Assembly (NCBI GenBank): GCA_016285075.1
Contig: JAEEQB010000007.1
Location: forward strand, 14,302-78,301
Length of the DNA: 64,000 nucleotides
Reading direction: 5' to 3'
DNA from: Prevotella sp.
Lineage (GTDB): Bacteria; Bacteroidota; Bacteroidia; Bacteroidales; Bacteroidaceae
A program made the translations under genes and the position numbers. Positions 1-31,013 of this stretch are shown here, piece after piece (the first letter of the stretch is position 1; each line of letters starts with the position of its first letter). The notes beneath the pieces were generated by a model. That model saw only the letters and a program-made list of their open reading frames with translations. It was not told where the DNA came from and ran no database searches.

Positions 1-2
1 TG

Positions 3-1430
3 GAACGTGCCGTGCAGATGGTGCAGCAGGAGGGTGGCATGACCTTCGAACCCGGCAACCGCCACAACTTCGTGATGCGCGTCTCGTTCATCCTCAACCG
101 CATGGGTGTGGACAAGGACGAGGCCGCCAAGGCGCTCGACGACATGTACCTGGGCAAGATGGACGGCAAGCCCTCGGACGTACTCAGAAGCTGCTACAAG
201 AGGGCTGCCGACGAGTTTGGCGTGTGGATGCCCAGGCAGTCGGCGCTGAAGACCGAGACCATTGCAGCCTTCCTCGCCAAGAAGAACCTGCAGTACGACC
301 TGCTTACCCAGAAGACCCGCCAGCTGATGGGCGACGGCCAGTGGCACGAGCTGAAGGAACGCGACGAGAACGACCTCTACATAGAGTGCTGCGCCGAGTC
401 GGAAATGAACATCACCGACAGGCTGTTCCAGAAGGTGCTCAACTCGAGCACCGTGCCCGAGGTGAACCCGCTCAAGGACTACGTGCAGTCGCGGGCACCG
501 TGGAACCCCGGGATGCCCGACTACATAGGCCAGGCAGCCCGGATGGTCCACATGGCCACCGACGCCGAGCAGCAGCTGTGGCAGCGGTGCTTCCTCAAGT
601 GGTTCGTGGCCATGGTGGCCGGATGGGTCGACAGCAACATCGTCAACCACCAGGTCATTGTGCTCATAGGCCGCCAGGGCATCTACAAGTCCACATGGAT
701 CAACCGTCTCTTGCCGCAAGAGCTGTCGGCCTACATCACCGACAACATCGACATCGACCGGCTGGACAAGGACGAAGAGCTCAGGGCGTCGGAATATGCA
801 GTCATCAACATCGACGAGCTCGACAAACTGAACGACCGCCAGCTGAACAAGCTCAAGTCGATGATCACCAAGACCCACACCGACCTGCGTGTGCCCTATG
901 GACGCCACAAGGAGAAGCGCGTGCGTGTGGCCAGCTACGCCGCCAGCGGCAACAAGGAGGAGTTCCTGACCGACCAGACCGGCAACCGCCGCTGGCTGCC
1001 CTTCCACGTCATCAGCATCGACTCGCCCTTCACCCACACCATGCCCTACGACGGCATGTATGCCCAGGCCTACCATCTGTTGAAGAACGGGTTCAACTAC
1101 TGGTTCGACACTGCCGACACCGACGCCATGGAGCAGCACGTCACAGAGTTCATGATACCCACCAGCGAGGAACAGCTCATACCCCTCTACTACTCGCCCG
1201 CCAGCGACAGTGAACCGGGTGCCAAGTTCCTCACCCTGGCCGAAATCTCAGCCAAGATCACCGGTGCTGGCAACCTGAAGAAAAACCCCGACCCGCGCCG
1301 CTTGGGCGCCATCATGACCAAGCTGGGGTTCGTCAAGGAGCGCAAAGGACATGACAACCGGCGTGGTTACTGGGTACGCGAACATTTACAGATTGAAATA
1401 GAGCAGATGCGCAGTCCTGACATCTTCTGA
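3..1430 (+). CDS. VapE/VirE-family P-loop primase-helicase-like protein of integrated mobile elements (5' end probably outside the window)
   Basis: The reading frame is open to the window edge. It has a Walker A-like LIGRQGIYKST, a Walker B-like INIDELDK and a TGNRRWLPF motif characteristic of the VirE/VapE family. Confidence 0.75.
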   Translation, partial: ERAVQMVQQEGGMTFEPGNRHNFVMRVSFILNRMGVDKDEAAKALDDMYLGKMDGKPSDVLRSCYKRAADEFGVWMPRQSALKTETIAAFLAKKNLQYDLLTQKTRQLMGDGQWHELKERDENDLYIECCAESEMNITDRLFQKVLNSSTVPEVNPLKDYVQSRAPWNPGMPDYIGQAARMVHMATDAEQQLWQRCFLKWFVAMVAGWVDSNIVNHQVIVLIGRQGIYKSTWINRLLPQELSAYITDNIDIDRLDKDEELRASEYAVINIDELDKLNDRQLNKLKSMITKTHTDLRVPYGRHKEKRVRVASYAASGNKEEFLTDQTGNRRWLPFHVISIDSPFTHTMPYDGMYAQAYHLLKNGFNYWFDTADTDAMEQHVTEFMIPTSEEQLIPLYYSPASDSEPGAKFLTLAEISAKITGAGNLKKNPDPRRLGAIMTKLGFVKERKGHDNRRGYWVREHLQIEIEQMRSPDIF

Positions 1431-1552
1431 TGCGACCGTTGCGACCGACCATTCTATAGATTTATTAAAAAATGGATATGTATATAAACATACTACATTC
1501 CTTTTTTTAATAAATCTATGAAAACAACGGTCGCAACGGTCGCATGGTCGCA
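1431..1552. repeat. Compound imperfect palindrome with GCGACCG repeats, starting directly after the VapE stop codon
   Basis: Outer arms tgcgaccgttgcgaccg (1431-1447) and cggtcgcaacggtcgca (1528-1544) are exact reverse complements. Inner arms atagatttattaaaaaa (1456-1472) and ttttttaataaatctat (1503-1519) are also exact reverse complements. The centre is AT-rich, and an extra tggtcgca follows at 1545-1552. Confidence 0.8.
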
Positions 1553-1581
1553 TTTTGTGGAACGAGGAAACTCCCCACCCC

Positions 1582-1664
1582 GATAGTATCATACTAAAGT
1601 GCTGATAGTATGATACTAAAGGGCCGATAGTATCATACTAAACACCCTTTAGTATCATACTATC
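1582..1664. repeat. Iteron-like array A: three direct units and one inverted unit of GATAGTATSATACTAAAG at 22-bp phasing
   Basis: Direct units start at 1582, 1604 and 1626. An inverted unit TTTAGTATCATACTATC sits at 1648-1664. The core AGTATSATACT is a near-palindrome. Confidence 0.9.
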
Positions 1665-1820
1665 GTCACTTTACAAACACCTTTTGTCCGTTGACTATGT
1701 TCAAGTTGTTGCTCGTTGTATTCGCCATAAATCGATTGCATCGCCGATGCATCAGCGTCGCCTGCCCGTAGGGGATGTCAAGGGACAGGTCAGTGACATC
1801 TCGTTGAAAACAGATAAGCA

Positions 1821-1883
1821 GAATCAGGGGGACAGGTTTTTGAATCGTTAATTCTCAGATTCAAAAACCTGTCCCCGTGATTC
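1821..1883. repeat. Long hairpin-forming inverted repeat (19-bp perfect stem plus 6-bp extension)
   Basis: ggggacaggtttttgaatc (1828-1846) is the exact reverse complement of gattcaaaaacctgtcccc (1858-1876). The flanking gaatca (1821-1826) pairs with tgattc (1878-1883). Confidence 0.85.
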
Positions 1884-2200
1884 CGTTACTTCCATGTCTT
1901 GTTAAGTTTTTGTGATTTGTGGGCAAAGGTACATCATGATTCCCAGATAAGCTCATTCTGAAAAAATCTTATTGTGAAATAACACTTCAGGGAAACAAAA
2001 GCCTGATATCTGTCGAGCTTGCTCATCAGAAAGCAGACAAGCATCTTTTTGTGGCATTTCACAGAAAAGTGCGTATTAGGCAACACCCTTCTATGGCATT
2101 GCAAGCAAAAATCTGTGCAGAATATTCCCATATCAAGAGAAAAGGCCACTCTTTTTCTTAATTTATGTTCACAAATTATCCTATTCTCGACATTTTTGAT

Positions 2201-2208
2201 TATATTTG
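2201..2208 (+). promoter_or_regulatory. Bacteroidota -7 promoter box TATATTTG upstream of the HTH-protease-LRR/exonuclease operon
   Basis: It matches the TAnnTTTG consensus and lies about 44 nt upstream of the ATG at 2252. Confidence 0.5.
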
Positions 2209-2251
2209 CGCACAGAACGCTCAATGTTGGGCAAGAATAACTAAAAGCAAT

Positions 2252-2458
2252 ATGGAGATACAACGCTATAACAGACTAAAGATAGTATTGGCCGAGAAAG
2301 AAAGAACTGGCACATGGCTCTCAGAGCAAATGGGTCACAGCATCAGTACTGTTTCACGCTGGATGACCAATAAGGTGCAACCATCAGTGGAACAGCTCTA
2401 CGAGATTGCACGCCACCTTGACGTGGATGTCAAAGAACTATTGATTTCATCAAAATAA
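2252..2458 (+). CDS. XRE-family helix-turn-helix transcriptional regulator (68 aa)
   Basis: The pattern LKIVLAEKERTGTWLSEQMGHSISTVSRWMTNKVQPSVEQLYEIARHLDVDVKELL is typical of HTH_3/XRE. The start was moved to the internal ATG, downstream of the promoter box. Confidence 0.8.
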   Translation: MEIQRYNRLKIVLAEKERTGTWLSEQMGHSISTVSRWMTNKVQPSVEQLYEIARHLDVDVKELLISSK

Positions 2459-2488
2459 AGCTTCTTTTATGAACATCTAAATACATAA

Positions 2489-3151
2489 ATGAAGATGATT
2501 ATGGAAACGTCATTGAATACTAATATTTTGGAATATATTGTTCCGATTCGTTTTCGTTCAAAGCTGCTTGGCACAGGAATAATACACAAGTCTTTATTAA
2601 TTACAGCAGCACATGTGGTTGAAGAACTTGAAAAAGAAAAAATAGAATTCTCTTTCGTGTATCATCACCAACATTTTGCCATGAACTGGAATTGCAAATT
2701 ATTTTACGAGTATGATAAAGAAAAAAAGAGAATTTATAAGGATTTGGCAATATTCAAAACTAATATAATATCAGGAGGTTTGCCGATAGAACCTGAGAAT
2801 AATTATGATGAAGCCAAGGCTTTATTGTGTGGTTATAACGATGAAAATAACGATATTACACTCAATATTAGTGAAGGTAATATCAGATTAAAGCCTTTCA
2901 ATGATGGAAGGACTTGCATCGCTATGAACAAAAACACCCTATTGCTAATGAATGTTCAGCCTCTTTTTATTTGTAATAGTGGGGGACCATTAATAAGTGC
3001 TGACAATAGTGCTATAGGCATATTGTCAGCAGGAAATATAGATATTCATTTTGCTCGATTTATTTCATCAAGTCACATATTGGAAGTTTTTTCTAAAGAT
3101 GATTGTTGCAGAGAAGCACTAATAGAATACGAGAAATCACGATTTTTGTAA
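2489..3151 (+). CDS. Cytoplasmic trypsin-fold (S1/Trypsin_2-like) serine protease
   Basis: The catalytic triad context is ITAAH(42)VV, YKD(85)LAIF and CNS(164)GGPL. No signal peptide or lipobox is visible, and the start is 30 nt after the HTH gene. Confidence 0.7.
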   Translation: MKMIMETSLNTNILEYIVPIRFRSKLLGTGIIHKSLLITAAHVVEELEKEKIEFSFVYHHQHFAMNWNCKLFYEYDKEKKRIYKDLAIFKTNIISGGLPIEPENNYDEAKALLCGYNDENNDITLNISEGNIRLKPFNDGRTCIAMNKNTLLLMNVQPLFICNSGGPLISADNSAIGILSAGNIDIHFARFISSSHILEVFSKDDCCREALIEYEKSRFL

Positions 3152-3184
3152 TAAGTTCATCATTATCAACATAATCAAATAATT

Positions 3185-5764
3185 ATGTCCACGCTAAAAA
3201 TTCTATCTGATACGCATTGTATGGTTAGATGCGACTTTCAAGAAGTTGGCAACATACAGGCTGGAGAGCTTTATAAACTCCAACTCAAAAGGGGATGCTA
3301 TATATTAGAATTCCTTGTTGAAGATATTGTCATTTGTTCAATGGATTATACTATAGAAACAAATGATGAAGAGCCCCTTCTTCGATTGAATATAAAGGAG
3401 CAGGCAGAAAAGAAGATAATGGAGCGTAAGTTCGCTTCTGTTTTTTCAGAAGACGGACGCTCTATTTTGGGGTGTAACAAATGTTTTGAAGGTGTATTTA
3501 TTGTGCCAGAAGGTATTGAACGCATTGAAAGGTACGCATTCAGCGAATGTGAATTTACTTCTGTAAATATTCCTAATAGTGTGAAGAGCATAGGAGATTA
3601 TGCTTTTATACATTGCCACGGCCTGACTTTGCTAACAATCCCCAACAGCGTGACATCAATTGGAGAAGGTGCTTTTCTGCATTGCAGCGGCCTGACTTCA
3701 CTGACAATTCCCAACAGCGTGAAATCAATTGGAGAAGATGTTTTCTCCCACTGCTCTGGCCTTACTTCCATTACTATACCCAACAGTGTTACGAGTATAG
3801 GCACTTGCGCTTTCGTTGGCTGCTCTGGCCTTACTTCCATTACTATACCCAACAGTGTGACGAGTATCGGCGCTTATGCTTTCAGTGGCTGCGACGGTCT
3901 GACTTCCGTTCACATTTCAGACATAGCAGTTTGGTGTAAAATTGATTTTTGTGAGTTGTATTCAAATCCTCTAGAAATTGCCCATCATCTTTTCCTAAAT
4001 GGAGAAGAGATAAAGGATTTGGTGATTCCCAACAACGTGACATCAATTGAAGGAGAAGTTTTCTCCGGCTGCTCTGGCCTTACTTCCATTATTATACCCA
4101 ACAGCGTGACATCAATTGGAGAGGGTACTTTCTCCCACTGTTCTGGTCTTACCTCCGTCACCATCCCCAACAGCGTTACATCAATAGGAGCATGTGCTTT
4201 CTATTATTGCTCTGGCCTTACTTCCATTACTATACCCAACAGTGTGACGAGTATCGGTCTTAGGGCTTTCGAAGGCTGTTCTGGTCTTACCTCCGTCACC
4301 ATCCCCAACAGCCTGACATCAATAGGAGAAGAAGCTTTCTGCTGCTGCTCTGGCCTGACATCCATTGTTGTTGAAGAAGGGAATACCAAATACGATTCTC
4401 GCAATATCTGTAATGCTATTATTGAGTCATCATCCAACACATTAATAGCTGGATGTAAAAACACCACAATACCCAACAGCGTAACAGCCATCGGTAGTTA
4501 TGCTTTCTTGCGTTGCAGCGGCCTGACTTCGGTGACAATCCCCAACAGCGTAACATCAATTGGAAAAGGTGCTTTTAAGTATTGCAGCGGCCTGACTTCG
4601 GTGACAATCCCCAATAGCGTGACATCAATTGAAGAATATGCTTTCTCCGGCTGCTCTGGCCTTACTTCCATTACTATACCCAACAGCGTGACATCAATAG
4701 GAGCATGGGCTTTCTCCGGCTGCTATGGCCTTACTTCCATTACTATACCCAACAGCTTGACATTAATAGGAGCATGGGCTTTCAACGGCTGCCACGGCCT
4801 GACTTCGGTGACAATCCCCAACAGCGTGACATCAATAGGAACATGTGCTTTCAGGGGTTGCAGTGGCCTGACTTCGGTGACAATCCCCAACAGCGTGAGA
4901 AGCATAGAAGTAGGCGCTTTCTCCCTCTGCTCTGGCCTTACTTCCATTACTATACCCAACAGCGTGACATCAATTGAAGGAGAAGCTTTCGATGGCTGTC
5001 CTGGCCTTACTTCCATTACTATACCCAACAGCGTGACATTAATAGGAAAAAGAGTTTTCTTGGAATGCGTCAATTTAAAGGAAATTATTATTCCCAAAGG
5101 AACAAGAAAGAAATTTGAAGATATGTTGCCAGACCAAAAAGACAAACTTGTGGAATATGAACAACTGACAATAAAAAGAACAAAAGATAATAAAACGTTT
5201 TTCTTTTTTGACACAGAAACAACAGGTGTTCCATTGAATTACAAAGCGCCAAGCTCAGACACAAATAATTGGCCAAGACTTGTTCAGCTGGCTTGGATTC
5301 TAACTGACCAGGAAGGTAATAGGATTCATACGGGCAACTTAATTGTAAAGCCAGAAGGTTTTATAATTCCTACTGATGCGACAAGAGTTCATGGTATCAC
5401 CACGCAGAGGGCAAATGAAGAGGGTGTTCCATTAACCGAGGCAATAGAACAGTTCAAAGCAGACTTGGATTTGGCAACCTATATTGTTGGCCATAACGTA
5501 GACTTCGACAAGAAGATTGTGGGGGCTGAGATGATTCGCCTTGGCATGAAGGACGAACTAGAAAAGAAGAAAAGCTATTGCACAATGCTATCGTCCATAG
5601 ATTTTTGTAAGATTCCTGGCAAGTATGGTTATAAGTATCCCAAACTACAAGAGTTGTATAAGAAACTTTTCGGCAATGAATTTGACGATGCCCATAATGC
5701 TATGAGTGATATCGAGGCAACAGAGCAATGCTTTTGGGAATTAAGAAAACGTAAACTGATCTAA
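3185..5764 (+). CDS. Fusion protein: N-terminal small beta-rich domain, about 20 BspA-type leucine-rich repeats (LRR_5), and a C-terminal DEDDh 3'-5' exonuclease (DnaQ-like)
   Basis: The 23-aa repeat IPNSVTSIGxxAFxxCSGLTSxT occurs about 20 times. Exo I is FFFFD(676)TE(678)TTG, Exo II is GHNVDFD(775) and Exo III is H(837)NAMSD(842). There is no signal peptide and no T9SS C-terminal domain. Confidence 0.85.
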   Translation: MSTLKILSDTHCMVRCDFQEVGNIQAGELYKLQLKRGCYILEFLVEDIVICSMDYTIETNDEEPLLRLNIKEQAEKKIMERKFASVFSEDGRSILGCNKCFEGVFIVPEGIERIERYAFSECEFTSVNIPNSVKSIGDYAFIHCHGLTLLTIPNSVTSIGEGAFLHCSGLTSLTIPNSVKSIGEDVFSHCSGLTSITIPNSVTSIGTCAFVGCSGLTSITIPNSVTSIGAYAFSGCDGLTSVHISDIAVWCKIDFCELYSNPLEIAHHLFLNGEEIKDLVIPNNVTSIEGEVFSGCSGLTSIIIPNSVTSIGEGTFSHCSGLTSVTIPNSVTSIGACAFYYCSGLTSITIPNSVTSIGLRAFEGCSGLTSVTIPNSLTSIGEEAFCCCSGLTSIVVEEGNTKYDSRNICNAIIESSSNTLIAGCKNTTIPNSVTAIGSYAFLRCSGLTSVTIPNSVTSIGKGAFKYCSGLTSVTIPNSVTSIEEYAFSGCSGLTSITIPNSVTSIGAWAFSGCYGLTSITIPNSLTLIGAWAFNGCHGLTSVTIPNSVTSIGTCAFRGCSGLTSVTIPNSVRSIEVGAFSLCSGLTSITIPNSVTSIEGEAFDGCPGLTSITIPNSVTLIGKRVFLECVNLKEIIIPKGTRKKFEDMLPDQKDKLVEYEQLTIKRTKDNKTFFFFDTETTGVPLNYKAPSSDTNNWPRLVQLAWILTDQEGNRIHTGNLIVKPEGFIIPTDATRVHGITTQRANEEGVPLTEAIEQFKADLDLATYIVGHNVDFDKKIVGAEMIRLGMKDELEKKKSYCTMLSSIDFCKIPGKYGYKYPKLQELYKKLFGNEFDDAHNAMSDIEATEQCFWELRKRKLI

Positions 5765-5873
5765 AAATGTCAAAGACTATAGGCATCAAGGAATTATGGG
5801 GAAAGGTTATTGATTCCCTAAAGGTGCTATAGCGAAATAACGAAATAATTGATTAATTTTGCCGGCAATTAAT

Positions 5874-6998
5874 ATGGAACAGAAACAAATAACAGCGACG
5901 TATGATGAGGCAGTAAGCGCGATAAAAGAGGCGATATTGGAAAGTCGCTATCGTGCAGCACGGTTGGTGAATAAGGAAGTGCTGGCTCTTTACTATGCTA
6001 TTGGTGGGTATATTTCCGTTCAAAGCAGAGCTGCAAGATGGGGTAGCAATGCTATTGGCACTATCTCAGAATTGCTGCAACAGGAATTGCCTGGGTTAAG
6101 AGGTTTTTCTGAGACAAGCATCAAACGTATGCGTATCTTCTACGAGGCATGGTGCAGCATGTTCGAGAATCGTCCATTGTCAGCGGACGATTTGCAAAAC
6201 AGCATCATTCCAGTAGGCGACAAAGGACATATTGAAATTCGTCCATTGACAACGGACGAATTACCTCCAGAGACATTAGATGCCTTTCTTGCCGTTGGAT
6301 TTACGAACCATTATGAGATACTGGCCCAAAAGAAGGATGTAGAGCAACGATTGTTCTATATCGTGAATTGTGCCACTGGATTTTGGAATGGCGACAAGTT
6401 GAAATATTATATGAAGGACGATTTGTTTGGAAAGCGTGGCAAGATGCCTAATAACTTTGCAACAACAATTGAAAATGTAGATTTGCGTAGTAAGGCATTA
6501 CGCTCGTTCAAGGACGAATATCTGCTCGACTTTGTGAACATTGAAGATCCTGACGAGACAGATGAGCGTGTGATAGAGCAACAGATTGTTCACAATATCA
6601 AGAACTTCATCATGGCATTGGGTAGTGATTTCTCGTTTATGGGTAATCAGTATCGTCTTGTTGTATCCGAAAAAGAGTATTTCATAGATTTACTGTTCTT
6701 CAATCGCCGCCTTCAGGCACTAATCGCGATCGAATTAAAGCGGGGTGAGTTCAAGCCAGAGTATGCAGGGAAGTTGAATTTCTATCTTTCAGCACTTGAC
6801 GAGTATGTGAAACTGCCTCATGAGAATCCTTCCATCGGAATTATTCTCTGCAAGGACAGAGATTCAAAAACGGTGGAGTTCGCATTCCGAGACATCAACA
6901 AGCCAATGGGTGTAGCAACCTATCGCACATCTTCAGAGTTACCCAAGGAATACCAAGGTATACTTCCTGAACCAGAGGAGTTGAGAAAACTCATGTGA
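5874..6998 (+). CDS. DUF1016/YhcG-family PD-(D/E)XK nuclease-like protein
   Basis: The N-terminal region NKEVLALYYAIGGYI...GFSETSIKRMRIFY and the C-terminal core IDLLFFNRRLQALIAIELKRGEFKPEYAGKLNFYLSALDE...PSIGIILC match the family pattern. Confidence 0.75.
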   Translation: MEQKQITATYDEAVSAIKEAILESRYRAARLVNKEVLALYYAIGGYISVQSRAARWGSNAIGTISELLQQELPGLRGFSETSIKRMRIFYEAWCSMFENRPLSADDLQNSIIPVGDKGHIEIRPLTTDELPPETLDAFLAVGFTNHYEILAQKKDVEQRLFYIVNCATGFWNGDKLKYYMKDDLFGKRGKMPNNFATTIENVDLRSKALRSFKDEYLLDFVNIEDPDETDERVIEQQIVHNIKNFIMALGSDFSFMGNQYRLVVSEKEYFIDLLFFNRRLQALIAIELKRGEFKPEYAGKLNFYLSALDEYVKLPHENPSIGIILCKDRDSKTVEFAFRDINKPMGVATYRTSSELPKEYQGILPEPEELRKLM

Positions 6999-7241
6999 GT
7001 GTACCCAATGTATGCGATACGGCACAGATATTGGGTAATAGGACATAGCCTAATACGCACCTTTCTGGCAAGTGCCACAAAAGGTGCCGCAGTTAGTTCA
7101 AGAGCGTTGAGCAAGCTCAGAACAAAAAGATGTGAATAGATTTGATTCATTCAAAAAGAATGATTACCTTTGAGACGATGTCTCGAAGTTACTCACGTTC
7201 GAAAATACTCAAATAAATTTGGTATTTTGCTCACTTATTCG

Positions 7242-7249
7242 TAACTTTG
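7242..7249 (+). promoter_or_regulatory. TAACTTTG -7 box with an upstream TTTG (7218-7221); orphan promoter with no convincing downstream ORF
   Basis: It matches the consensus. The string cgtaactttgcacccga (7240-7256) is identical to 30894-30910. Confidence 0.45.
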
Positions 7250-7295
7250 CACCCGATGATGAGTCATAAAACGGCTGATGGCTCATTATCGGGTG
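7250..7295. repeat. 46-nt near-perfect inverted repeat overlapping the predicted transcription start of the orphan promoter
   Basis: cacccgatgatgagtcat (7250-7267) pairs with atggctcattatcgggtg (7278-7295) over 18 positions, including two G-T pairs. A T-rich tract follows. Confidence 0.75.
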
Positions 7296-7717
7296 TTCTT
7301 TCTTGCGTCCCGTTGGTAGCAAGCGAGCATAGCTCGAGCGGATGCAGTTTATAGCAGAATGTGGAATTGAGAACGGTCTCCAATTCGTAACCCCATTTTC
7401 CTTCAATTCCCCAGACTGCCTTTATACAAAGAAAAGCTGAGAAATCTTCCAAAATTACGAAAAAAATCCTTTCCCCCAAATATTTCTCATTGTTAGCTGC
7501 ATTTTATTTGGTTATTCAACTTTCTCAAGTGCGCCCTGAAGGGGCAGCAGCTGTAAGGGTAAGCTTTTAGTTGCTAAAGTTTCCCACCCTTATAACAGCT
7601 TTGTTCAAGACGCTTCCAGCGTCGGTGGATGAAATGCTTTCATTGGGGTGGGGGAACTTAAGTAGATAAAAATTAAAAAAAGTCTTTTTTTTATTTTGTA
7701 TTGTTCTCACTTATTAG

Positions 7718-7725
7718 TACCTTTG
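7718..7725 (+). promoter_or_regulatory. TACCTTTG -7 box for the lipoprotein gene at 7800
   Basis: It matches the TAnnTTTG consensus and lies about 75 nt upstream of the ATG. Confidence 0.5.
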
Positions 7726-7799
7726 CCGCGTCAAACGCCATGTAGCAGCTCGCACTTGGTCAATCGTGGGCTTGCGGCGTAATTGAGAAACATCTGAAG

Positions 7800-8639
7800 A
7801 TGAACAGGTTTTTGATGGTCATTCTTGCAGCGTCGCTGCTGTTCTCGTGTGGCGGGAGCAGGCGGACGCCTATAGCCGACACTCCAGCCGACTCGGTGGA
7901 CACCGTGCCCCAGGACACTACGGAAGTGGACTCGCTGGAGATGCTGGTAACCGACACACCGATGCCCAAGGCTGCCGACGAACTGTTCGACGACTTCATC
8001 TTCAACTTTGCCGCCAACCGTAATCTCCAGATGGAACGAATACTATTCCCGCTGCCCGTCACACGCAACGGACAGACGGACAGCCTCGACAAGAAGAGGT
8101 GGAAGACCGAGCGTTTCTTCCTGCACCAGGACTACTACACCGTGCTGTTCGACTCGGAGCGCCAGATGGCGCTGATGAACGACACGTCAGTAAACAAGGC
8201 CACGGTCGAGAAGATCTACTTCAACACCGGGGCCGTGATACAGTATGAGTTCCACCGCATCAGGGGAGCCTGGATGCTCACCAGCGTGCAGACTATTCCC
8301 ATTGCACAGAACAGGAATGCATCGTTCCTGGACTTCTACCATCAGTTTGTGACCGATTCGGTGTACCAGGCAGAGAGCCTGCATGAGACAGTACAGTTCA
8401 CTGGACCCGATCCCGACGATGACTTCGCACAGATGGAGGGGGTCATCACTGCCGACACGTGGCCAGCCTTTGCACCAGTGCTGCCTGAGAAGATGATCTA
8501 CAACATTGTCTACGGTGAACCGTCGAAGTCTACCGGGGTCATTATCTTCATGATGAGGGGCATAGCCAACGGCTTTGAGATGATGATGACGTTCCAGCAG
8601 CAGAACGGGCGGTGGGTACTGACGAAGATGAATACTTGA
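7800..8639 (+). CDS. Hypothetical lipoprotein
   Basis: The lipoprotein signal is MNRFLMVILAASLLFSCGG. Coding-like composition runs through the ORF. Confidence 0.65.
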   Translation: MNRFLMVILAASLLFSCGGSRRTPIADTPADSVDTVPQDTTEVDSLEMLVTDTPMPKAADELFDDFIFNFAANRNLQMERILFPLPVTRNGQTDSLDKKRWKTERFFLHQDYYTVLFDSERQMALMNDTSVNKATVEKIYFNTGAVIQYEFHRIRGAWMLTSVQTIPIAQNRNASFLDFYHQFVTDSVYQAESLHETVQFTGPDPDDDFAQMEGVITADTWPAFAPVLPEKMIYNIVYGEPSKSTGVIIFMMRGIANGFEMMMTFQQQNGRWVLTKMNT

Positions 8640-8647
8640 CATGTGAA

Positions 8648-8694
8648 GCGGCCTGCGGCCTAAATGATAAATGATAAATGATAAATGATAAATA
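8648..8694. repeat. GC hairpin (ggcc tgc ggcc) plus four AAATGAT heptamers; the murB start codon lies inside the array
   Basis: The 41-nt string gcggcctgcggcctaaatgataaatgataaatgataaatga (8648-8688) recurs exactly at 9684-9724. Confidence 0.9.
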
Positions 8695-9683
8695 AAAAAA
8701 TTGCTGCCGCCATCCCCAATACGTTTGGCATAGACGCCAGATGCAGCCGTTACGTGGAGTATGCCGATGTGGCAGAGGCCCGCGAGGTGGCCGCCATGCT
8801 GCGCGGCAGCCACGAGCCCTTCCTGGTGATAGGCGGAGGCAGCAACCTGCTGCTGACCCGTGACTTCCAGGGCACGGTGGTGCGCTCGGCCATCATGGGT
8901 ATCAGCTATGACGACGTACGCGTTACCTGCGGCAGCGGCATGGAGATGGACCTGGTGATAGCACAGTGCATAGAGCATGGGCTCTATGGTGCCGAGAACC
9001 TGTCGCTCATACCCGGCGACGTGGGAGCCTGCGCCGTGCAGAACATAGGAGCCTACGGTGTGGAGGCCAAGGACATCATAGAATGTGTGAGAGCCGTCGA
9101 CATAGCCACGGGCGAGTTGCACGAGCTGGCCAACCGTGACTGTCAATACGGTTACCGCCAAAGCCGGTTCAAGCAGGAGTGGCAGGGCAGGTATCTCATC
9201 ACCGAGGTGGTGTTCAGGCTGAGCAGGGAGTACCGGCCACATCTGGACTACGGCCACATACGTGCCGAGCTGCAGCGGCAGGGCATCGGCAATCCCGATG
9301 CACAGCAGCTGCGCAATGTGATCATTGGAATACGCCAGTCGAAACTGCCCGACTGGAAAGTAACAGGCAATGCCGGCAGCTTCTTCATGAACCCCGTGGT
9401 GGACCGTGAGAAGTACGAGGCACTGGCAGCACAGTACCCCGGCATGCCCCACTACTACATTGACGAGCAGCACGAGAAGATTCCCGCAGGGTGGATGATA
9501 GAGCAGTGCGGGTGGAAAGGACGCTCGCTGGGCCGGGCCGGTGTCTACGCGAAACAGGCACTGATACTGGTGAACCTGGGCGGTGCCACGGGCGCAGAGA
9601 TAGTGACGCTGTGCGACACCATCCGTCAGGACGTGCAGCAGAAGTTCGGTATTGACATTCACCCCGAAGTGAACATCGTTTAG
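8685..9683 (+). CDS. murB: UDP-N-acetylenolpyruvoylglucosamine reductase
   Basis: Motifs NTFGIDA, an FAD-binding VIGGGSNLL, and C-terminal [12 protein letters not shown]...GAEI all fit MurB. Confidence 0.9.
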
Positions 9684-26933: not shown

Positions 26934-27097
26934 TAAATGTTATGTTTATATGATTGTTGTTTTTGAGAGTGCAAAGGTACGAAAAATTCAATGAAGTGAA
27001 AACAAAATGAATGTATTTATTTCATCGGACGTGATAAATTCATCAATAGACGAGCTAAAAGCATCGTTTTTGGACGTGCCGACTGTGTAAGACATCC

Positions 27098-27221
27098 GTA
27101 TGACACCTGACATCCTCTGGTATCATACTAAAGGTCCTCTTGTATCATACTAAAGGTCCTCTAGTATCATACTAAAGGTCCTCTAGTATCATACTAAAGG
27201 TCCTCTAGTATCATACTAAAA
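27098..27221. repeat. Iteron-like array B: one degenerate unit plus five units of (TA)GTATCATACTAAAGGTCCTC at 22-bp phasing
   Basis: Unit cores start at 27098 (gtatgacac variant), 27120, 27142, 27164, 27186 and 27208. Orientation is the same as the direct units of array A. Confidence 0.9.
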
Positions 27222-27688
27222 TCTATCTTGTGTCTTATTATTAAGGTGAGTAGGTTGAACAATCCCCCAGTTTTTACCAATAATCACCACAGAAAATAGC
27301 GTTATTCTTTGGGGCTTATTGTACATAACCTAACTTGTTTGTCGTACCTAACTATTTTTTGGAGTTTCAGACATAACCATTGTGGTGTCTTCAACCTAAC
27401 CTGATTTTTAATATTTGATTTCTTGAAAATGACAGAGACGGATGAGTTATGAATATCCGTCTCTGTGCTTAACACGTTATCTCACGACAACGAATTTAAT
27501 AACTTTGTCATTTCTGTTGTGAAAGTTTAACATTTATCATAACTGACAGATTTATAGGTATTTGAAACACTAACCATACTGATTTTCTTGTCAAAATTCT
27601 GAAATCCTTACAAAATTCAGCAAACTACTTTTTCTTGCAGAGTTATTTATAGCAATAATCACGTTTAACAAGTTAAAAAGTAAGAGTT

Positions 27689-28259
27689 ATGAACACAAAG
27701 TTTTTATTGGATTTCAAGTCCGAAAGAGAATTTCTAAAGCACTTCTCAACCGAAAGAAGATGCGTTAAGTATCTGGAGCAGAAAATCTACAATGGCAGGG
27801 TAAAGCCACTGGGATAAGAAAGTGAAGAATAGCCAAGGTAGGAGTTTTAAGGACAAGACACCCGTGCTTGGAATACTCCAGCGAGGCACTGGTGTGATTT
27901 GTAAAGTACTGAAAGATACAACCTCAAAATCTCTGAATGCGCCCATCCTTAGAGCAGTTAGCAAGCATGCTAAAGCCGTTTATTCTGACGAGTGGAGTGG
28001 CTACAAGACTATCCACAAAGTCTTCAATCATTATGTAGTTGACCACGGTCGCAAAATCTATGCTGTAGGTGATATTCACACAAATACTATTGAGGCATTT
28101 TTGTCAAACTATTGTAAGCGTGCCCTTATGGGAACTTATAGCAAGGTGGCTAAGAAACACTTGCAATTATACTTTGATGAATTCTCATTCCGTTACAACA
28201 ACCGCAGGTACAACGGTGTGAATAGATTTGAGGTGGCTATGTGCCAATGTTTAGTCTAA
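27689..28259 (+). pseudogene. Decayed IS1595-family (ISXO2-like) transposase
   Basis: A 42-aa N-terminal fragment (27689-27817) ends in a stop. A second fragment lies in another frame (27822-28259) with YSDEWSGY...NTIEAF...HLQLYFDEFSFRYNNR. The region carrying the first catalytic Asp is missing. Confidence 0.7.
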
Positions 28260-28316
28260 TTGAAATACAAACTGCAATTTTTTCTATGATTTCGCATAAA
28301 ATCGCCTAACTTTTCG

Positions 28317-28324
28317 TACCTTTG
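28317..28324 (+). promoter_or_regulatory. TACCTTTG -7 box
   Basis: It matches the consensus and sits directly upstream of the structured leader. Confidence 0.5.
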
Positions 28325-28341
28325 CACAGACGATTGTGTCT

Positions 28342-28483
28342 CACCCTCGTTAGAATCGCCAAATTTCAAATAAGGGTCTATATGGAGGCACGGACGGCAG
28401 TTCATACCAGTGGACTGCCCATCTGTGCATATAGACGAGTGTTTGGCGATACTCTACGAGGTGTGACGGATGGAGCAGTCCAC
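28342..28483 (+). ncRNA. Candidate structured RNA or 5' leader: four stacked helices plus a competing or pseudoknot pairing
   Basis: Four helices are visible: 28342-28350 with 28456-28465, 28355-28363 with 28442-28450 (9 bp perfect), 28376-28384 with 28428-28436 (9 bp perfect), and 28396-28401 with 28414-28419. In addition, 28475-28483 is complementary to 28410-28418 (9 bp). Confidence 0.45.
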
Positions 28484-28523
28484 CTTTCGTTGTATAGTAT
28501 TAACTCGTAAAAATATCGCCATT

Positions 28524-28838
28524 ATGTACACTTTAGAAGAAATCAATCAAGCGGCATCAGCCAAAGCGTGGAAAATCTTTTGGGTCTGGTTACTGGTATT
28601 CGGTATTCCAGTAGGTTTCCTGAACTATAAAGCAATATCTTATGGTGACCCTCCATTGTTCATGCTCGACTTATTTCTAATCTTTGGCGCTGGGATAATG
28701 TCTTGGGTTGCGTATGCTAACGAAAGAAAGAAACTGAATAATGAGAACGCAGAAGAAGAACGACAGCAGCGTGAAGAACATTACCGCAAGATGGAAGAAC
28801 TCTTAGAAAAGATGTCGAAAGACAAGGAAACCACATGA
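28524..28838 (+). CDS. Small membrane protein (two predicted TM helices, charged coiled-coil tail)
   Basis: Hydrophobic segments are WKIFWVWLLVFGIPVGFL and LFMLDLFLIFGAGIMSWVAY. The start was set to the internal ATG after the leader. Confidence 0.5.
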   Translation: MYTLEEINQAASAKAWKIFWVWLLVFGIPVGFLNYKAISYGDPPLFMLDLFLIFGAGIMSWVAYANERKKLNNENAEEERQQREEHYRKMEELLEKMSKDKETT

Positions 28839-28917
28839 TTACCACACTACAAGCAATGCTACGTGCTTAATACAATTCAGATAGTAACTTATACGCTCAC
28901 TTATAAAACTCATCGTT

Positions 28918-29391
28918 ATGCGCAATTATTCGATTACAAACTTAGAGCAAAGCAAAAGGCTCTTTTATGCAGGTCTGAAATTCCGAACCGCTGATTATAT
29001 CGTTGATTCTACATTCTCCAAGGTCGAAAGCGTTATGAACGTTATCGAAAAACCGATTAGGATTGAAGCACCATCGGACTTGAAGAAAGCAGAAACAAGT
29101 AAATATATGTCCGTTGCATGGTCTCTTGGTAAACTCATTCACATGCTACCAGATAGTATTCCATCGGCTTATGATGAAAACAATAATGAGGTTGCCAATG
29201 GTGAACCCATAGACTTCAATCTTGTCATAGGTCGTAACTCTATTCGTTACGTTTCGGATAATGGCGTATGCCGTTTAAGTGCTTTGGGTGCTTGTCTGCT
29301 TGATGCTGCGGTAGATATGACAGAGAAAATACTAAAAGAAAGTTATTATCTGTACGATGACGATGGAGAAGATGAATGGTACGATGAATAA
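28918..29391 (+). CDS. Hypothetical protein with a strongly acidic C-terminus
   Basis: The ORF is followed by a terminator. I recognise no family motif. The tail is YLYDDDGEDEWYDE. Confidence 0.45.
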   Translation: MRNYSITNLEQSKRLFYAGLKFRTADYIVDSTFSKVESVMNVIEKPIRIEAPSDLKKAETSKYMSVAWSLGKLIHMLPDSIPSAYDENNNEVANGEPIDFNLVIGRNSIRYVSDNGVCRLSALGACLLDAAVDMTEKILKESYYLYDDDGEDEWYDE

Positions 29392-29407
29392 TATAAGAAC
29401 CAAAAGG

Positions 29408-29446
29408 AAATGAGGATTGCTAAAACTATCCTCATTTTTCTTTTTC
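29408..29446 (+). terminator. Rho-independent terminator
   Basis: aaatgaggat pairs with atcctcattt in a 10-bp stem, followed by a T-rich run. Confidence 0.65.
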
Positions 29447-29677
29447 TCTAATCGCCATTTGACAAAACATACTGACAAATTGGCAAGATATTCTGACATC
29501 AACACTTCGGCATAGAATTTGCGAAATCGCATTAGAGCCTAAAGGCTTTCACAAGCCTTTGAGTCCGATAGGATTGTGACGGGGAACACTAATCTTTGCC
29601 TGTTAACCAGAAGATAGCAGAGTACCTCTCTGTATAAAAGGAGGATAACACGTTTAATCATAAAATTTTGAGACAAA

Positions 29678-29929
29678 ATGGCAGAACGAAATACAAGTAA
29701 GTATGAGTTGACCAGGGGTAACAAAGTTGTTTATGTCGGTATCACTGAAGACCCTGCTGGCAGAGAAGCACAGCACCGCCAAGATAAGGACTTCGACAAA
29801 ATGAGGATTGTCGGTGCAAAGTCCACTCGAAGCGGTGCTGAGCAGTGGGAGACGGAAAGGATACATACCTATATGAAAAATCATGGAGGTAATACACCTG
29901 AATACAACAAGAACACTTCTGGCAAGTGA
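29678..29929 (+). CDS. Stand-alone GIY-YIG-like mini-protein (83 aa)
   Basis: YELTRGNKVVYVGIT (a GIY...YIG-like pair), then REAQHR and AEQWETERI, which could supply the conserved Arg and Glu. Confidence 0.45.
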   Translation: MAERNTSKYELTRGNKVVYVGITEDPAGREAQHRQDKDFDKMRIVGAKSTRSGAEQWETERIHTYMKNHGGNTPEYNKNTSGK

Positions 29930-29983
29930 TTTGTTATACCGTCCAGTCAAATAGTGTTGGGAGCACTATTCTGACTCTTTCCA

Positions 29984-30021
29984 AGCGACTGGCGTTTTAG
30001 GCTCTGCGGCAGTCGCTTTTT
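29984..30021 (+). terminator. Terminator hairpin between convergent genes
   Basis: agcgactg pairs with cagtcgct in an 8-bp stem, followed by ttttt. Confidence 0.55.
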
Positions 30022-30040
30022 ATTATAACGTTGTCATCTA

Positions 30041-30457
30041 CTATTTATTGTCTTTAGTCAGCATAAGTTCACGGATATATTGCTGAAACTCTCTCTGCGT
30101 TGAAAACTTGCTTTCGTCAAACTTAACGTTTGCAAGCCGTTCAAACTGACGGATAGTATTCATTCCTACAATTTGGAATTTAATGTTTTGCTGAGAATCT
30201 AATGATAATAGTTTCCCCTCTTTCTTTTTACTCCTTATCAATATAGATAGCAGTTTACGGATGATACCTATTGAAAATCTCTTTTTATTGCTTTCCACTT
30301 CTTTATCGACAATGGGAAATAGATTGATAAAGTCATCTTTGTCCTCCAAATCAAAAAGTTCAGAAAATAGCGGATTACTATTTTGTTCACCTCTAATCTC
30401 CATTTGGCAACCATTATCGGTCTCTACTTGCTCTATAATAATCTGAGTTCTTCGCAT
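30041..30457 (-). CDS. Hypothetical protein (138 aa)
   Basis: It is an AT-rich ORF convergent with the GIY-YIG-like gene. I recognise no motif. Confidence 0.4.
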   Translation of the reverse strand: MRRTQIIIEQVETDNGCQMEIRGEQNSNPLFSELFDLEDKDDFINLFPIVDKEVESNKKRFSIGIIRKLLSILIRSKKKEGKLLSLDSQQNIKFQIVGMNTIRQFERLANVKFDESKFSTQREFQQYIRELMLTKDNK

Positions 30458-30895
30458 AGTTCTTTTTTTCTATTGTAACAATGATATAAATATGTGATAT
30501 TTTATAGTTGTGGCTTTTCATACCTAATTGTCAAAAATCGGTTTGATTTATATACCATGATTTCCCATAAAAATGTAGTCACGACTGTGGGTGTCATGAC
30601 TACAAAATTTCTTGGTAAGTTTGGAGAAATAGTTTTTATATTGCGGAATGCCTTTATTTATCGTGGTTTGCGGAGATTTTTGGGTGATTGTTATACTTTG
30701 TCACCATTATTAATAAGGTATATAATATCATATAGAGAATGGCCATTGTCATGCAAAAAGGGACAATTTGTGTGTGTAAAATACCGAAGATGTATTAAAA
30801 ATCCGTTTTCCCCGTCATTATTTGACCTTTGTCAACAAAAGGGCTGTTTGCGCACACAATACGATGGAAAATATTGCCAGTTTGAAAAATCGCCG

Positions 30896-30903
30896 TAACT
30901 TTG
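30896..30903 (+). promoter_or_regulatory. TAACTTTG -7 box for the gene at 31014
   Basis: It matches the consensus. It lies inside a 17-mer identical to 7240-7256. Confidence 0.5.
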
Positions 30904-31013
30904 CACCCGAAAACGAGAGCGAAAGCACTCGAAAAAGGATAACATACACAAACTAACAAAGTAGGGGAGCAACGGACTGACACATCCGCCCCGAGTAAAG
31001 AAAAGAAAGGAAA

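Follow-up and report, generated by a model that had tools for sequence, protein, structure and literature searches.

A putative Prevotella operon joining a trypsin-fold protease and a leucine-rich-repeat exonuclease: a candidate conflict module on a mobile element

Within a 64,000-nt stretch of genomic DNA from Prevotella sp. (contig JAEEQB010000007.1, positions 14,302–78,301 of the forward strand; hereafter the window), three adjoining genes encode a small XRE regulator, a trypsin-fold (S1) protease, and a fusion protein in which BspA-type leucine-rich repeats (LRRs) precede a DEDDh exonuclease domain. On the sequence evidence, and with a probability of about 0.45, the latter two are read as a two-protein conflict module under the XRE regulator, in which ligand binding by the cytoplasmic LRR–exonuclease would trigger proteolysis by the S1 protease; the direction of the module is probably immune. 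What was shown is the anatomy of the genes, intact catalytic sites, a predicted cytoplasmic location, a mobile-element setting, and the repeated occurrence of the protease next to, or fused with, LRR and WG repeat proteins. An earlier note on this DNA, made from the letters alone, had proposed a three-part sensor–effector system; the link between protease and LRR protein stood up to the analysis, with at least five architectures and two fusions, whereas the conservation of the trio and the place of XRE as a specific component did not.

The S1 protease and its repeat-protein partners

The protease gene (2489–3151, + strand) encodes a 220-aa protein that matched Pfam Trypsin_2 (1.7e-6, 29.2 bits against a cut-off of 27.6) and Trypsin (7e-6, 26.4 bits against a cut-off of 20.6). 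Its catalytic triad, H42/D85/S164, was invariant in 12 close and 9 more distant homologues, fusion proteins included. The AlphaFold2 (AF2) model reached a mean pLDDT of 88 and displayed a chymotrypsin fold with a C-terminal helical extension (aa 194–218). Foldseek aligned this model to Rv3671c, Esp, SplA, and HtrA in the PDB at a TM score of ~0.6, and 348 PDB matches were obtained at E ≤ 1e-3, of which the top 50 listed were all chymotrypsin-fold proteases or their homologues; as modelled, the protein generically resembles bacterial S1 proteases. Neither a signal peptide nor a transmembrane (TM) helix was found in any of the three proteins by hydropathy in Kyte–Doolittle (KD) windows, a crude test for export that is not SignalP (maximum KD19 1.44 and 1.30), and all three are predicted to be cytoplasmic. 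The earlier description of a trypsin-fold protease with an intact triad and no export signal was thus borne out by Pfam, AF2, the invariance of the triad, and hydropathy.

The protease family is small. An exhaustive hidden Markov model search of 1.84 billion representatives yielded 358 clusters at E ≤ 1e-3 (89 of them at ≤1e-10), and nearly all members are stand-alone proteins of 185–250 aa; a word index gave 15 homologues, and 16 metagenome loci, largely from the rumen, were found. The best PADLOC matches of the protease were RT-Protease_XI (2e-14) and LmuA (6e-7), both to protease/trypsin domains, while a relative, P0144, matched HamA (database proteins and related loci are designated here by P- and L-numbers, respectively).

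In at least five architectures, members of this family adjoin cytoplasmic proteins with LRR_5 and/or WG_beta_rep repeats. In the clade of the window, the protease gene is followed by the gene for the N-domain–LRR_5–exonuclease protein. L025 carries XRE, a 795-aa WG+LRR_5 protein, and the protease in this order, and the protease start overlaps the preceding stop. The protease of L024 is flanked by LRR_5 proteins on either side, that of L001/L002 follows a 1051-aa WG_beta_rep protein, and the partners in L026 and L044 also contain WG. In L040–L043, where the protease is 31% identical to that of the window, only 2 nt separate the protease gene from the end of an upstream gene for an 851-aa Pkinase–LRR_5 protein. 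Further, two direct fusions were found, P0281 (protease plus LRR_5, 3e-51) and P0196 (protease plus WG_beta_rep), and the triad is intact in both.

In 471 kb of collected DNA, BLAST detected no open reading frame (ORF) with LRR or WG repeats beyond those adjacent to the protease or the exonuclease fusions used for sampling. When a background of no more than about 1 LRR/WG gene per 300 kb was assumed, chance adjacency in five independent architectures came, by our own rough estimate, to ~1e-8. No other result of the analysis is as strong as this recurrent adjacency and fusion, and it supports the view that the protease and an intracellular LRR protein belong together; these loci show the protease family and the repeat proteins as a recurring, swappable pair.

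Three further observations concern the protease loci. The partners encoded upstream of the protease in L001, L023, L026, L033, and L044, otherwise unrelated to one another, share similar acidic/aromatic C-terminal tails (for example, ...DAFEGDSDAYWNID and ...MTDGMYGDxPDxxDxDYxxMGY), and these could be a docking or recognition motif or else a recombination junction. Some cassettes (L028, 1233–1796; L029, 5144–5707) carry two paralogous small S1 proteases with a 156-aa membrane protein between them; the second of the two is similar to the protease portion of P0281, the protease–LRR_5 fusion. A conserved string of genes for DUF6939, DarT, a 260-aa protein, and DUF1810 follows the kinase–LRR/protease pair in L040–L043 and also occurs near a stand-alone exonuclease in L009, where DUF3268 comes after DUF1810; the string, in which DarT has no obvious DarG, is an array shared among mobile genetic elements (MGEs).

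The LRR–exonuclease fusion and its relatives

The third gene (3185–5764, + strand) encodes the 859-aa fusion. Its N-terminal domain of ~100 aa (3185–3493, +), hereafter the N-domain, is carried by six database proteins and matched nothing in Pfam (E ≤ 10), PHROGs, or PADLOC. Wherever sequence upstream of a carrier was available (the window, L018, L019, L020, L030, and L038, the last being the locus of P0136, one of the six), the protease gene always adjoins. The LRR array (3494–5083, +) comprises twenty 23-aa BspA-type (LRR_5) repeats arranged in three blocks with two non-repeat inserts; Pfam LRR_5 was matched in six blocks at 3e-191, and TRF returned a period of 69 nt. Variability within the repeat peaks at positions 12, 13, 16, and 17, with 2.4–3.1 bits vs. 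≤1.2 at most others, and the copy number varies among near-identical cassettes, giving fusions of 813, 859, and 960 aa. Between solenoid and exonuclease lie an LRR C-cap and linker, KEIIIPKGTRKKFEDMLPDQKDKLVEYEQLTIKRTKDNKT (5084–5197, +). Conservation of the linker extends to the LRR–exonuclease fusions P0005, P0014, and P0095, and the cap part also terminates an exonuclease-less LRR protein in L024.

The C-terminal DEDDh (DnaQ-like) 3′-5′ exonuclease domain (5198–5764, +), for which activity is predicted, matched Pfam RNase_T at aa 674–846 (4e-13, 50.8 bits against a cut-off of 24). Residues D676, E678, D775, H837, and D842 of the Exo I, II, and III motifs, numbered as alignment position + 630, were invariant in 18 exonuclease homologues, so that the earlier reading of about 20 BspA-type repeats followed by a complete DEDDh exonuclease agrees with the 20 repeats and five invariant residues observed here. 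The N-terminus of the fusion is hydrophilic (maximum KD12 0.98), no TM segment was seen by hydropathy, and no secretion-tail domain was found in Pfam; these results match the claim that the fusion lacks a signal peptide and a type IX secretion system tail and is therefore predicted to be intracellular. The repeat type is the same 23-aa LRR_5 as in the BspA-family surface proteins of Bacteroidota, but, in contrast to them, the window fusion lacks a signal peptide, a lipobox, a TM segment, and a secretion tail, and it is attached to a cytoplasmic-type nuclease. A surface or secreted BspA adhesin was rejected because the fusion has no export signal.

The exonuclease part has a wide mobile kinship. 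It matched DEDDh (1e-26) and PDC-S48 (6e-13) in PADLOC and phrog_192, annotated ‘DNA polymerase exonuclease subunit’ (2e-37), and it is ~40% identical to phage proteins of Parabacteroides, Bacteroides, and Alistipes. Compared with the phage/MGE DnaQ-like exonucleases of phrog_192, the C-terminal 190 aa of the window protein are a full-length member; the difference is that the domain sits behind the N-domain and 20 LRRs, and LRR, Sel1, or TM extensions are found in a minority of the family. At least 398 relatives lie on IMG/VR viral contigs, including contigs of giant-virus metagenome-assembled genomes. In the 80 IMG/VR contigs retrieved (L047–L126), the relatives are mostly ORFs of ~190–230 aa, with nothing homologous to the protease, XRE, or LRR found near them. 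Contigs with stand-alone exonucleases carry mobile-element genes and, where the source is named, belong to Prevotella or Prevotellaceae; the neighbours there are VapE, PIF1, DUF1016, DarT, M78, restriction-modification (R-M), and AIPR-like genes. Genome contigs searched with the exonuclease gave one relevant locus (L034) plus three distant Prochlorococcus matches, and sequence searches of the PDB gave remote matches only, those of the exonuclease being to TREX1, DnaQ, and ExoI at ~1e-4. The family shares the motif NWPR[LM]VQL, and a few IMG/VR relatives lie inside ORFs of 730–1450 aa, presumably polymerase fusions.

Operon, regulator, and surroundings

The XRE helix-turn-helix (HTH) gene (2252–2458, + strand; 68 aa) starts at an internal ATG of the ORF at 2165–2458. 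All three ORFs are co-directional, with 30 nt between the XRE and protease genes and 33 nt between the protease and fusion genes. A TAnnTTTG box, TATATTTG (2201–2208, +), which is only a consensus match to the Bacteroidota -7 promoter element, lies 44 nt 5′ of the XRE ATG and is the sole + strand TAnnTTTG from 2201 up to 5854; the motif alone is weak as evidence, as 43 were found in the window vs. 26 expected. Scans for sigma-70 promoters and terminators remained at chance level, such models being uninformative for Bacteroidota. From this layout, which the earlier note had given correctly as judged by ORF calls and a motif scan, the three genes look like a single transcription unit.

In loci where the protease is ≥97% identical (L018–L021, L030, L032, L038), XRE is kept upstream, and the N-domain–LRR gene is kept downstream wherever the contig reaches. 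The cassette DNA of this trio-bearing clade is 80–98% identical to the window where alignable and lies in at least four differing flanking contexts, the upstream flank being VapE in the window, an intact tyrosine integrase in L019, and parC with an integrase remnant in L038. The N-domain–LRR gene of L020 (1120–4558) breaks off after 293 aa, and genes for HTH_17 and a tyrosine integrase come next, an arrangement suggestive of the insertion of another integrative element into the LRR gene. L030 encodes a 1059-aa LRR protein and a 647-aa exonuclease, the latter with a membrane-like N-terminus, in separate genes on either side of a DUF1848 gene. The cargo regions of these mobile elements are mosaics.

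The XRE protein matched Pfam HTH_26 (7e-9) and HTH_3 (3e-8), in keeping with the earlier assignment of a 68-aa XRE HTH, and also PHROG families of transcriptional repressors. Its homologues, 51–100% identical, head protease cassettes in L018–21, L023, L025, L026, L028, L029, L031, L032, and L038. Where the protease belongs to a clade of 47% identity, the cassettes are headed by XRE homologues of 51–79% identity, and the genes between XRE and protease vary, encoding proteins of 301–795 aa, a second protease, or a 155-aa membrane protein. Directly 5′ of the window operon lies a decayed tyrosine integrase remnant of the Bacteroidota type with an Arm-DNA-binding N-terminus (2061–2181, +), found by tblastn with the integrase remnant of L038 as query (E 4e-5, three frame-shifted pieces). 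An intact 406-aa integrase stands upstream of XRE in L019, and integrase remnants do so in L025, L029, and L038. XRE was undetected at the protease loci L001 and L040–43. Because XRE is tied to an integrase or its remnant at variable cassettes and is missing at several protease loci, it is read as the regulator that heads an integrase–XRE–cargo cassette rather than as a component devoted to the protease.

The operon lies, as the earlier note had it, in AT-rich cargo between a VapE gene and a DUF1016 gene: the G+C content is 36–38% around the operon and 47% in the LRR array, vs. 55–61% in the flanks (VapE gene 61%, core genes 55%). The VapE gene, identified by Pfam, occupies 12–1430. The DUF1016/YhcG PD-(D/E)XK nuclease gene (5859–6998, ATG at 5874, +) matched Pfam YhcG_C (6e-55) and DUF1016_N (2e-22) and the PADLOC candidate PDC-S02 (6e-121); it is preceded by a TAnnTTTG of its own at 5854 and probably constitutes a one-gene unit separate from the operon. 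A DUF1016 gene follows the exonuclease gene 3′ in L018, L030, and L003–L008 and is nearby in L009. This proximity persists even where protease and XRE are missing (in L003 the DUF1016 gene has decayed); either a link between the two nucleases or a shared hotspot may account for it.

A 26-nt inverted repeat, or hairpin (1821–1883, arms 1821–1846/1858–1883, 96% complementary), lies at the shared cassette's left edge, and DNA homology to L018 and L019 begins at 1886–1887. A conserved non-coding segment (7028–7465) lies on the right-hand border of cargo cassettes that differ from one another; it matched L003/L005, L009/L010, and L029 at 69–93% identity by blastn, with contexts that otherwise differ; it matched no Rfam family and is a possible cassette or element boundary or recombination site. 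The Rfam scan of 1–9000 gave miRNA-model matches on palindromes only, which were spurious. The region is best explained as a cassette of cargo genes on an integrative or mobilisable element of Prevotellaceae.

Farther from the operon, a 47-nt inverted repeat with an AT-rich core (1430–1545) stands directly 3′ of the VapE gene and is followed by palindromic GATAGTATCATACTA copies (1580–1673) with 22-nt spacing. The array at 1430–1673 resembles iterons or operators, and it is possibly the replication origin of the element or a regulator-binding site. A second low-G+C island (35–40%) at 27000–31000 contains several small ORFs without obvious function and a 145-aa ORF (27822–28259) with a by-eye likeness to a fragment of an IS1595/ISXO2-type transposase.

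Proposed mechanism and rival readings

In the conflict module as proposed, XRE would hold expression of the operon low, and the stand-alone protease and the LRR protein would form a physical complex. The hypervariable LRR face would bind a protein ligand, on the defence reading a protein of an invading phage or MGE, and binding by the solenoid would switch on proteolysis. Proteolysis may free or activate the exonuclease through a cut in the N-domain or the LRR–exonuclease linker; alternatively, it may itself serve as a second effector. The outcome would be the breakdown of nucleic acid with free 3′ ends, the presumed substrate of the exonuclease. We tentatively favour a defence over a counter-defence direction. 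Neighbours at the related loci are of defence- or MGE-island type (DUF1016 (PDC-S02), DarT, SLFN/AlbA_2, RhuM, DUF1848, R-M, AIPR-like, AAA_21), and the conflict-system flavour derives from the PADLOC kin of the protease, which belong to classes that activate partner pro-nucleases, and from the DEDDh and PDC-S48 matches of the exonuclease. Trypsin-like proteases paired with metallo-beta-lactamase (MBL) pro-nucleases occur in Hachiman (HamMAB), AVAST (Avs1/2), Lamassu, and DRT (Tuck et al., Science 2025, PMC12799240; bioRxiv 10.1101/2025.09.03.673762), and these protease classes were shown to activate their partner pro-nucleases (PMC12799240).

The trypsin–MBL pairs offer the nearest logic that is understood from experiments. 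The window operon shares with them a trypsin-fold protease co-encoded with a nuclease, the sensor–protease–nuclease logic, and a profile-level kinship of the protease. In contrast to them, its protease is a stand-alone 220-aa protein with a 25-aa helical tail, unfused to HamA, Avs, LmuA, or RT; its nuclease is of the DEDDh and not the MBL fold, lies downstream, is fused to the putative sensor, and has no gating insertions; and a helicase, STAND, or SMC component is absent. Neither the genes of the window nor any of the related loci that were scanned showed an MBL domain, and membership was rejected because there is no MBL gene and the protease is unfused. The caspase–nuclease loci named Canu carry TPR and Ig domains (PMC12799240); like them, the window locus combines a stand-alone protease, a nuclease, and repeat or interaction domains in variable small loci of defence islands, but it has an S1 protease in place of a caspase, DEDDh in place of MBL, and BspA-type LRR_5/WG in place of TPR/Ig. 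The analogy to NLR/Avs-like systems, drawn in the earlier note, fails on the domain that defines them. A repeat ligand-binding domain with a variable surface is joined to a nuclease- or protease-type effector in both, whereas the window repeats are LRR_5 and not TPR or WD40, and no NTPase/STAND domain (NACHT, NB-ARC) was found in the three proteins with Pfam, NCBIfam, or PADLOC; membership in the NLR/Avs group was rejected on the lack of an NTPase domain.

Several results weigh against a conflict module. The exact trio is confined to one narrow rumen clade, so its conservation counts for little. The expectation that protease and HTH genes would be conserved neighbours of the exonuclease–LRR fusion held in the ≥97% clade but failed for P0005, P0014, and P0095, three fusions in three other contexts with no protease or XRE neighbour. 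Since the clade is shallow and both LRR–exonuclease fusions and the exonuclease occur without the protease, the three-gene unit is, judged by its distribution, a recent combination and not an old conserved system. Stand-alone exonuclease homologues of 191–195 aa are abundant (60–84% identical), and the exonuclease domain is collinear with them with zero insertions; therefore a ‘gated pro-nuclease’ is not indicated. Members of the exonuclease family are characteristic of phages and giant-virus contigs, and several protease loci lie in long co-directional MGE arrays (DarT, DUF1810, DnaB-like, DUF3127); an element-serving or anti-defence role would agree with both facts equally well. No fold was obtained for the N-domain, as AF2 on the N-terminal 170 aa with a 7-sequence alignment gave pLDDT <50 for aa 1–102; of the structural check that had been proposed, the protease part was informative (chymotrypsin fold, pLDDT 88), while this part of the fusion was unusable. 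No protease homologue was found in IMG/VR, 50,697 phage genomes (GenBank phages), or PLSDB plasmids. Finally, hmmscan of single proteins against PADLOC-DB v2, without system logic, gave no named defence system, as had been predicted, and only component-level matches (RmrA-HTH, RT-Protease_XI, LmuA, DEDDh, PDC-S48; PDC-S02 for the neighbour).

Some of these results would suit a counter-defence or establishment module, in which the LRR/WG solenoids would recognise proteins of the host, immune or otherwise, and the attached enzymes (exonuclease, kinase) and the protease would inactivate these or their nucleic-acid signals, to the benefit of the element, or a phage, in becoming established. The exonuclease family occurs overwhelmingly in viruses or on MGEs (phrog_192, 2e-37; phage proteins ~40% identical; at least 398 viral contig loci), the arrays of L001 and L040 (SSB-like DUF3127, DnaB-like, DarT, DUF1810) resemble transfer or establishment regions, and all loci lie on mobile elements with VapE primases or integrases. 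However, the protease, absent from the same 50,697 phage genomes and IMG/VR, has its nearest profile matches among defence effectors, the neighbouring genes are mostly of defence type, and the operon is headed by a repressor-type XRE, as in many defence and toxin modules; we hold counter-defence to be unlikely. It is also rather improbable that there is no system at all and that independent cargo was packed together, the exonuclease fusion being an LRR-tethered replication or repair accessory and the protease unrelated to it. Such packing would agree with the mosaic cargo regions and with LRR–exonuclease fusions and stand-alone exonucleases that lie without a protease beside VapE primase, PIF1 helicase, and DUF1016, but it is opposed by the protease–repeat adjacency in at least five architectures, the two direct fusions, and the lack of background LRR/WG genes in 471 kb, as well as by gaps of 30–33 nt behind a single promoter box.

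ImmR/ImmA and CapH/CapP are regulator–protease pairs, and their proteases are Zn-metallopeptidases (M78/ImmA). An alternative, which the earlier note offered in an ImmR/ImmA-like form, is that XRE and protease are a repressor/anti-repressor switch of this kind; the switch would belong to the integrase–XRE backbone of a small integrative element and control the LRR–exonuclease and the other variable genes as its cargo. As in the known pairs, a small XRE gene adjoins the protease gene (30-nt gap) on a mobile element or defence locus beside an integrase. Cassettes with a protease of ~47% identity and varying genes in between are indeed headed by XRE homologues (51–79%), and an integrase or its remnant stands directly upstream of XRE in L019, L025, L029, L038, and the window. 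Against such a switch, the window protease is of the serine type, and no Pfam match to Peptidase_M78 (ImmA/IrrE type) was found in it, whereas the known switches use Zn-metalloproteases. The family further occurs without detectable XRE in L001 and L040–43, is tightly or translationally coupled to repeat proteins and not to XRE, and is found fused to LRR_5 or WG repeats, which an anti-repressor role leaves unexplained. We regard the switch as improbable.

Returning to the conflict module, literature searches found, in the library searched, no description of a protease + LRR_5/WG + DEDDh architecture. The earlier claim that the architecture was undescribed stands for its composition, namely BspA-type LRR/WG repeats, a stand-alone S1 protease, exonuclease or kinase heads, and no NTPase, but not for the sensor–protease–nuclease logic, which is already known. 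A broader reading, which we find doubtful, is that the loci represent an undescribed, NTPase-free modular immune class on Bacteroidota MGEs, in which intracellular BspA-type LRR or WG solenoids would be direct sensors with swappable heads (DEDDh exonuclease, protein kinase, and others) and would either signal through a dedicated small S1 protease or be processed by it. If true, this class would be a prokaryotic counterpart of LRR-receptor and protease cascades. Should the pair of protease and repeat protein be a working immune or counter-immune module, the recently established principle of a protease activating a nuclease would extend to another nuclease class, without an NTPase or helicase sensor. 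BspA-type LRR and WG repeats, abundant in gut and rumen Bacteroidota and usually read as surface adhesins, would then gain an intracellular role. The exonuclease and kinase heads on a common repeat scaffold would be suited to studying sensor–effector recombination, and the module would offer an entry point to the defence systems of Prevotella, a dominant genus that is hard to manipulate genetically and whose repertoire is little charted.

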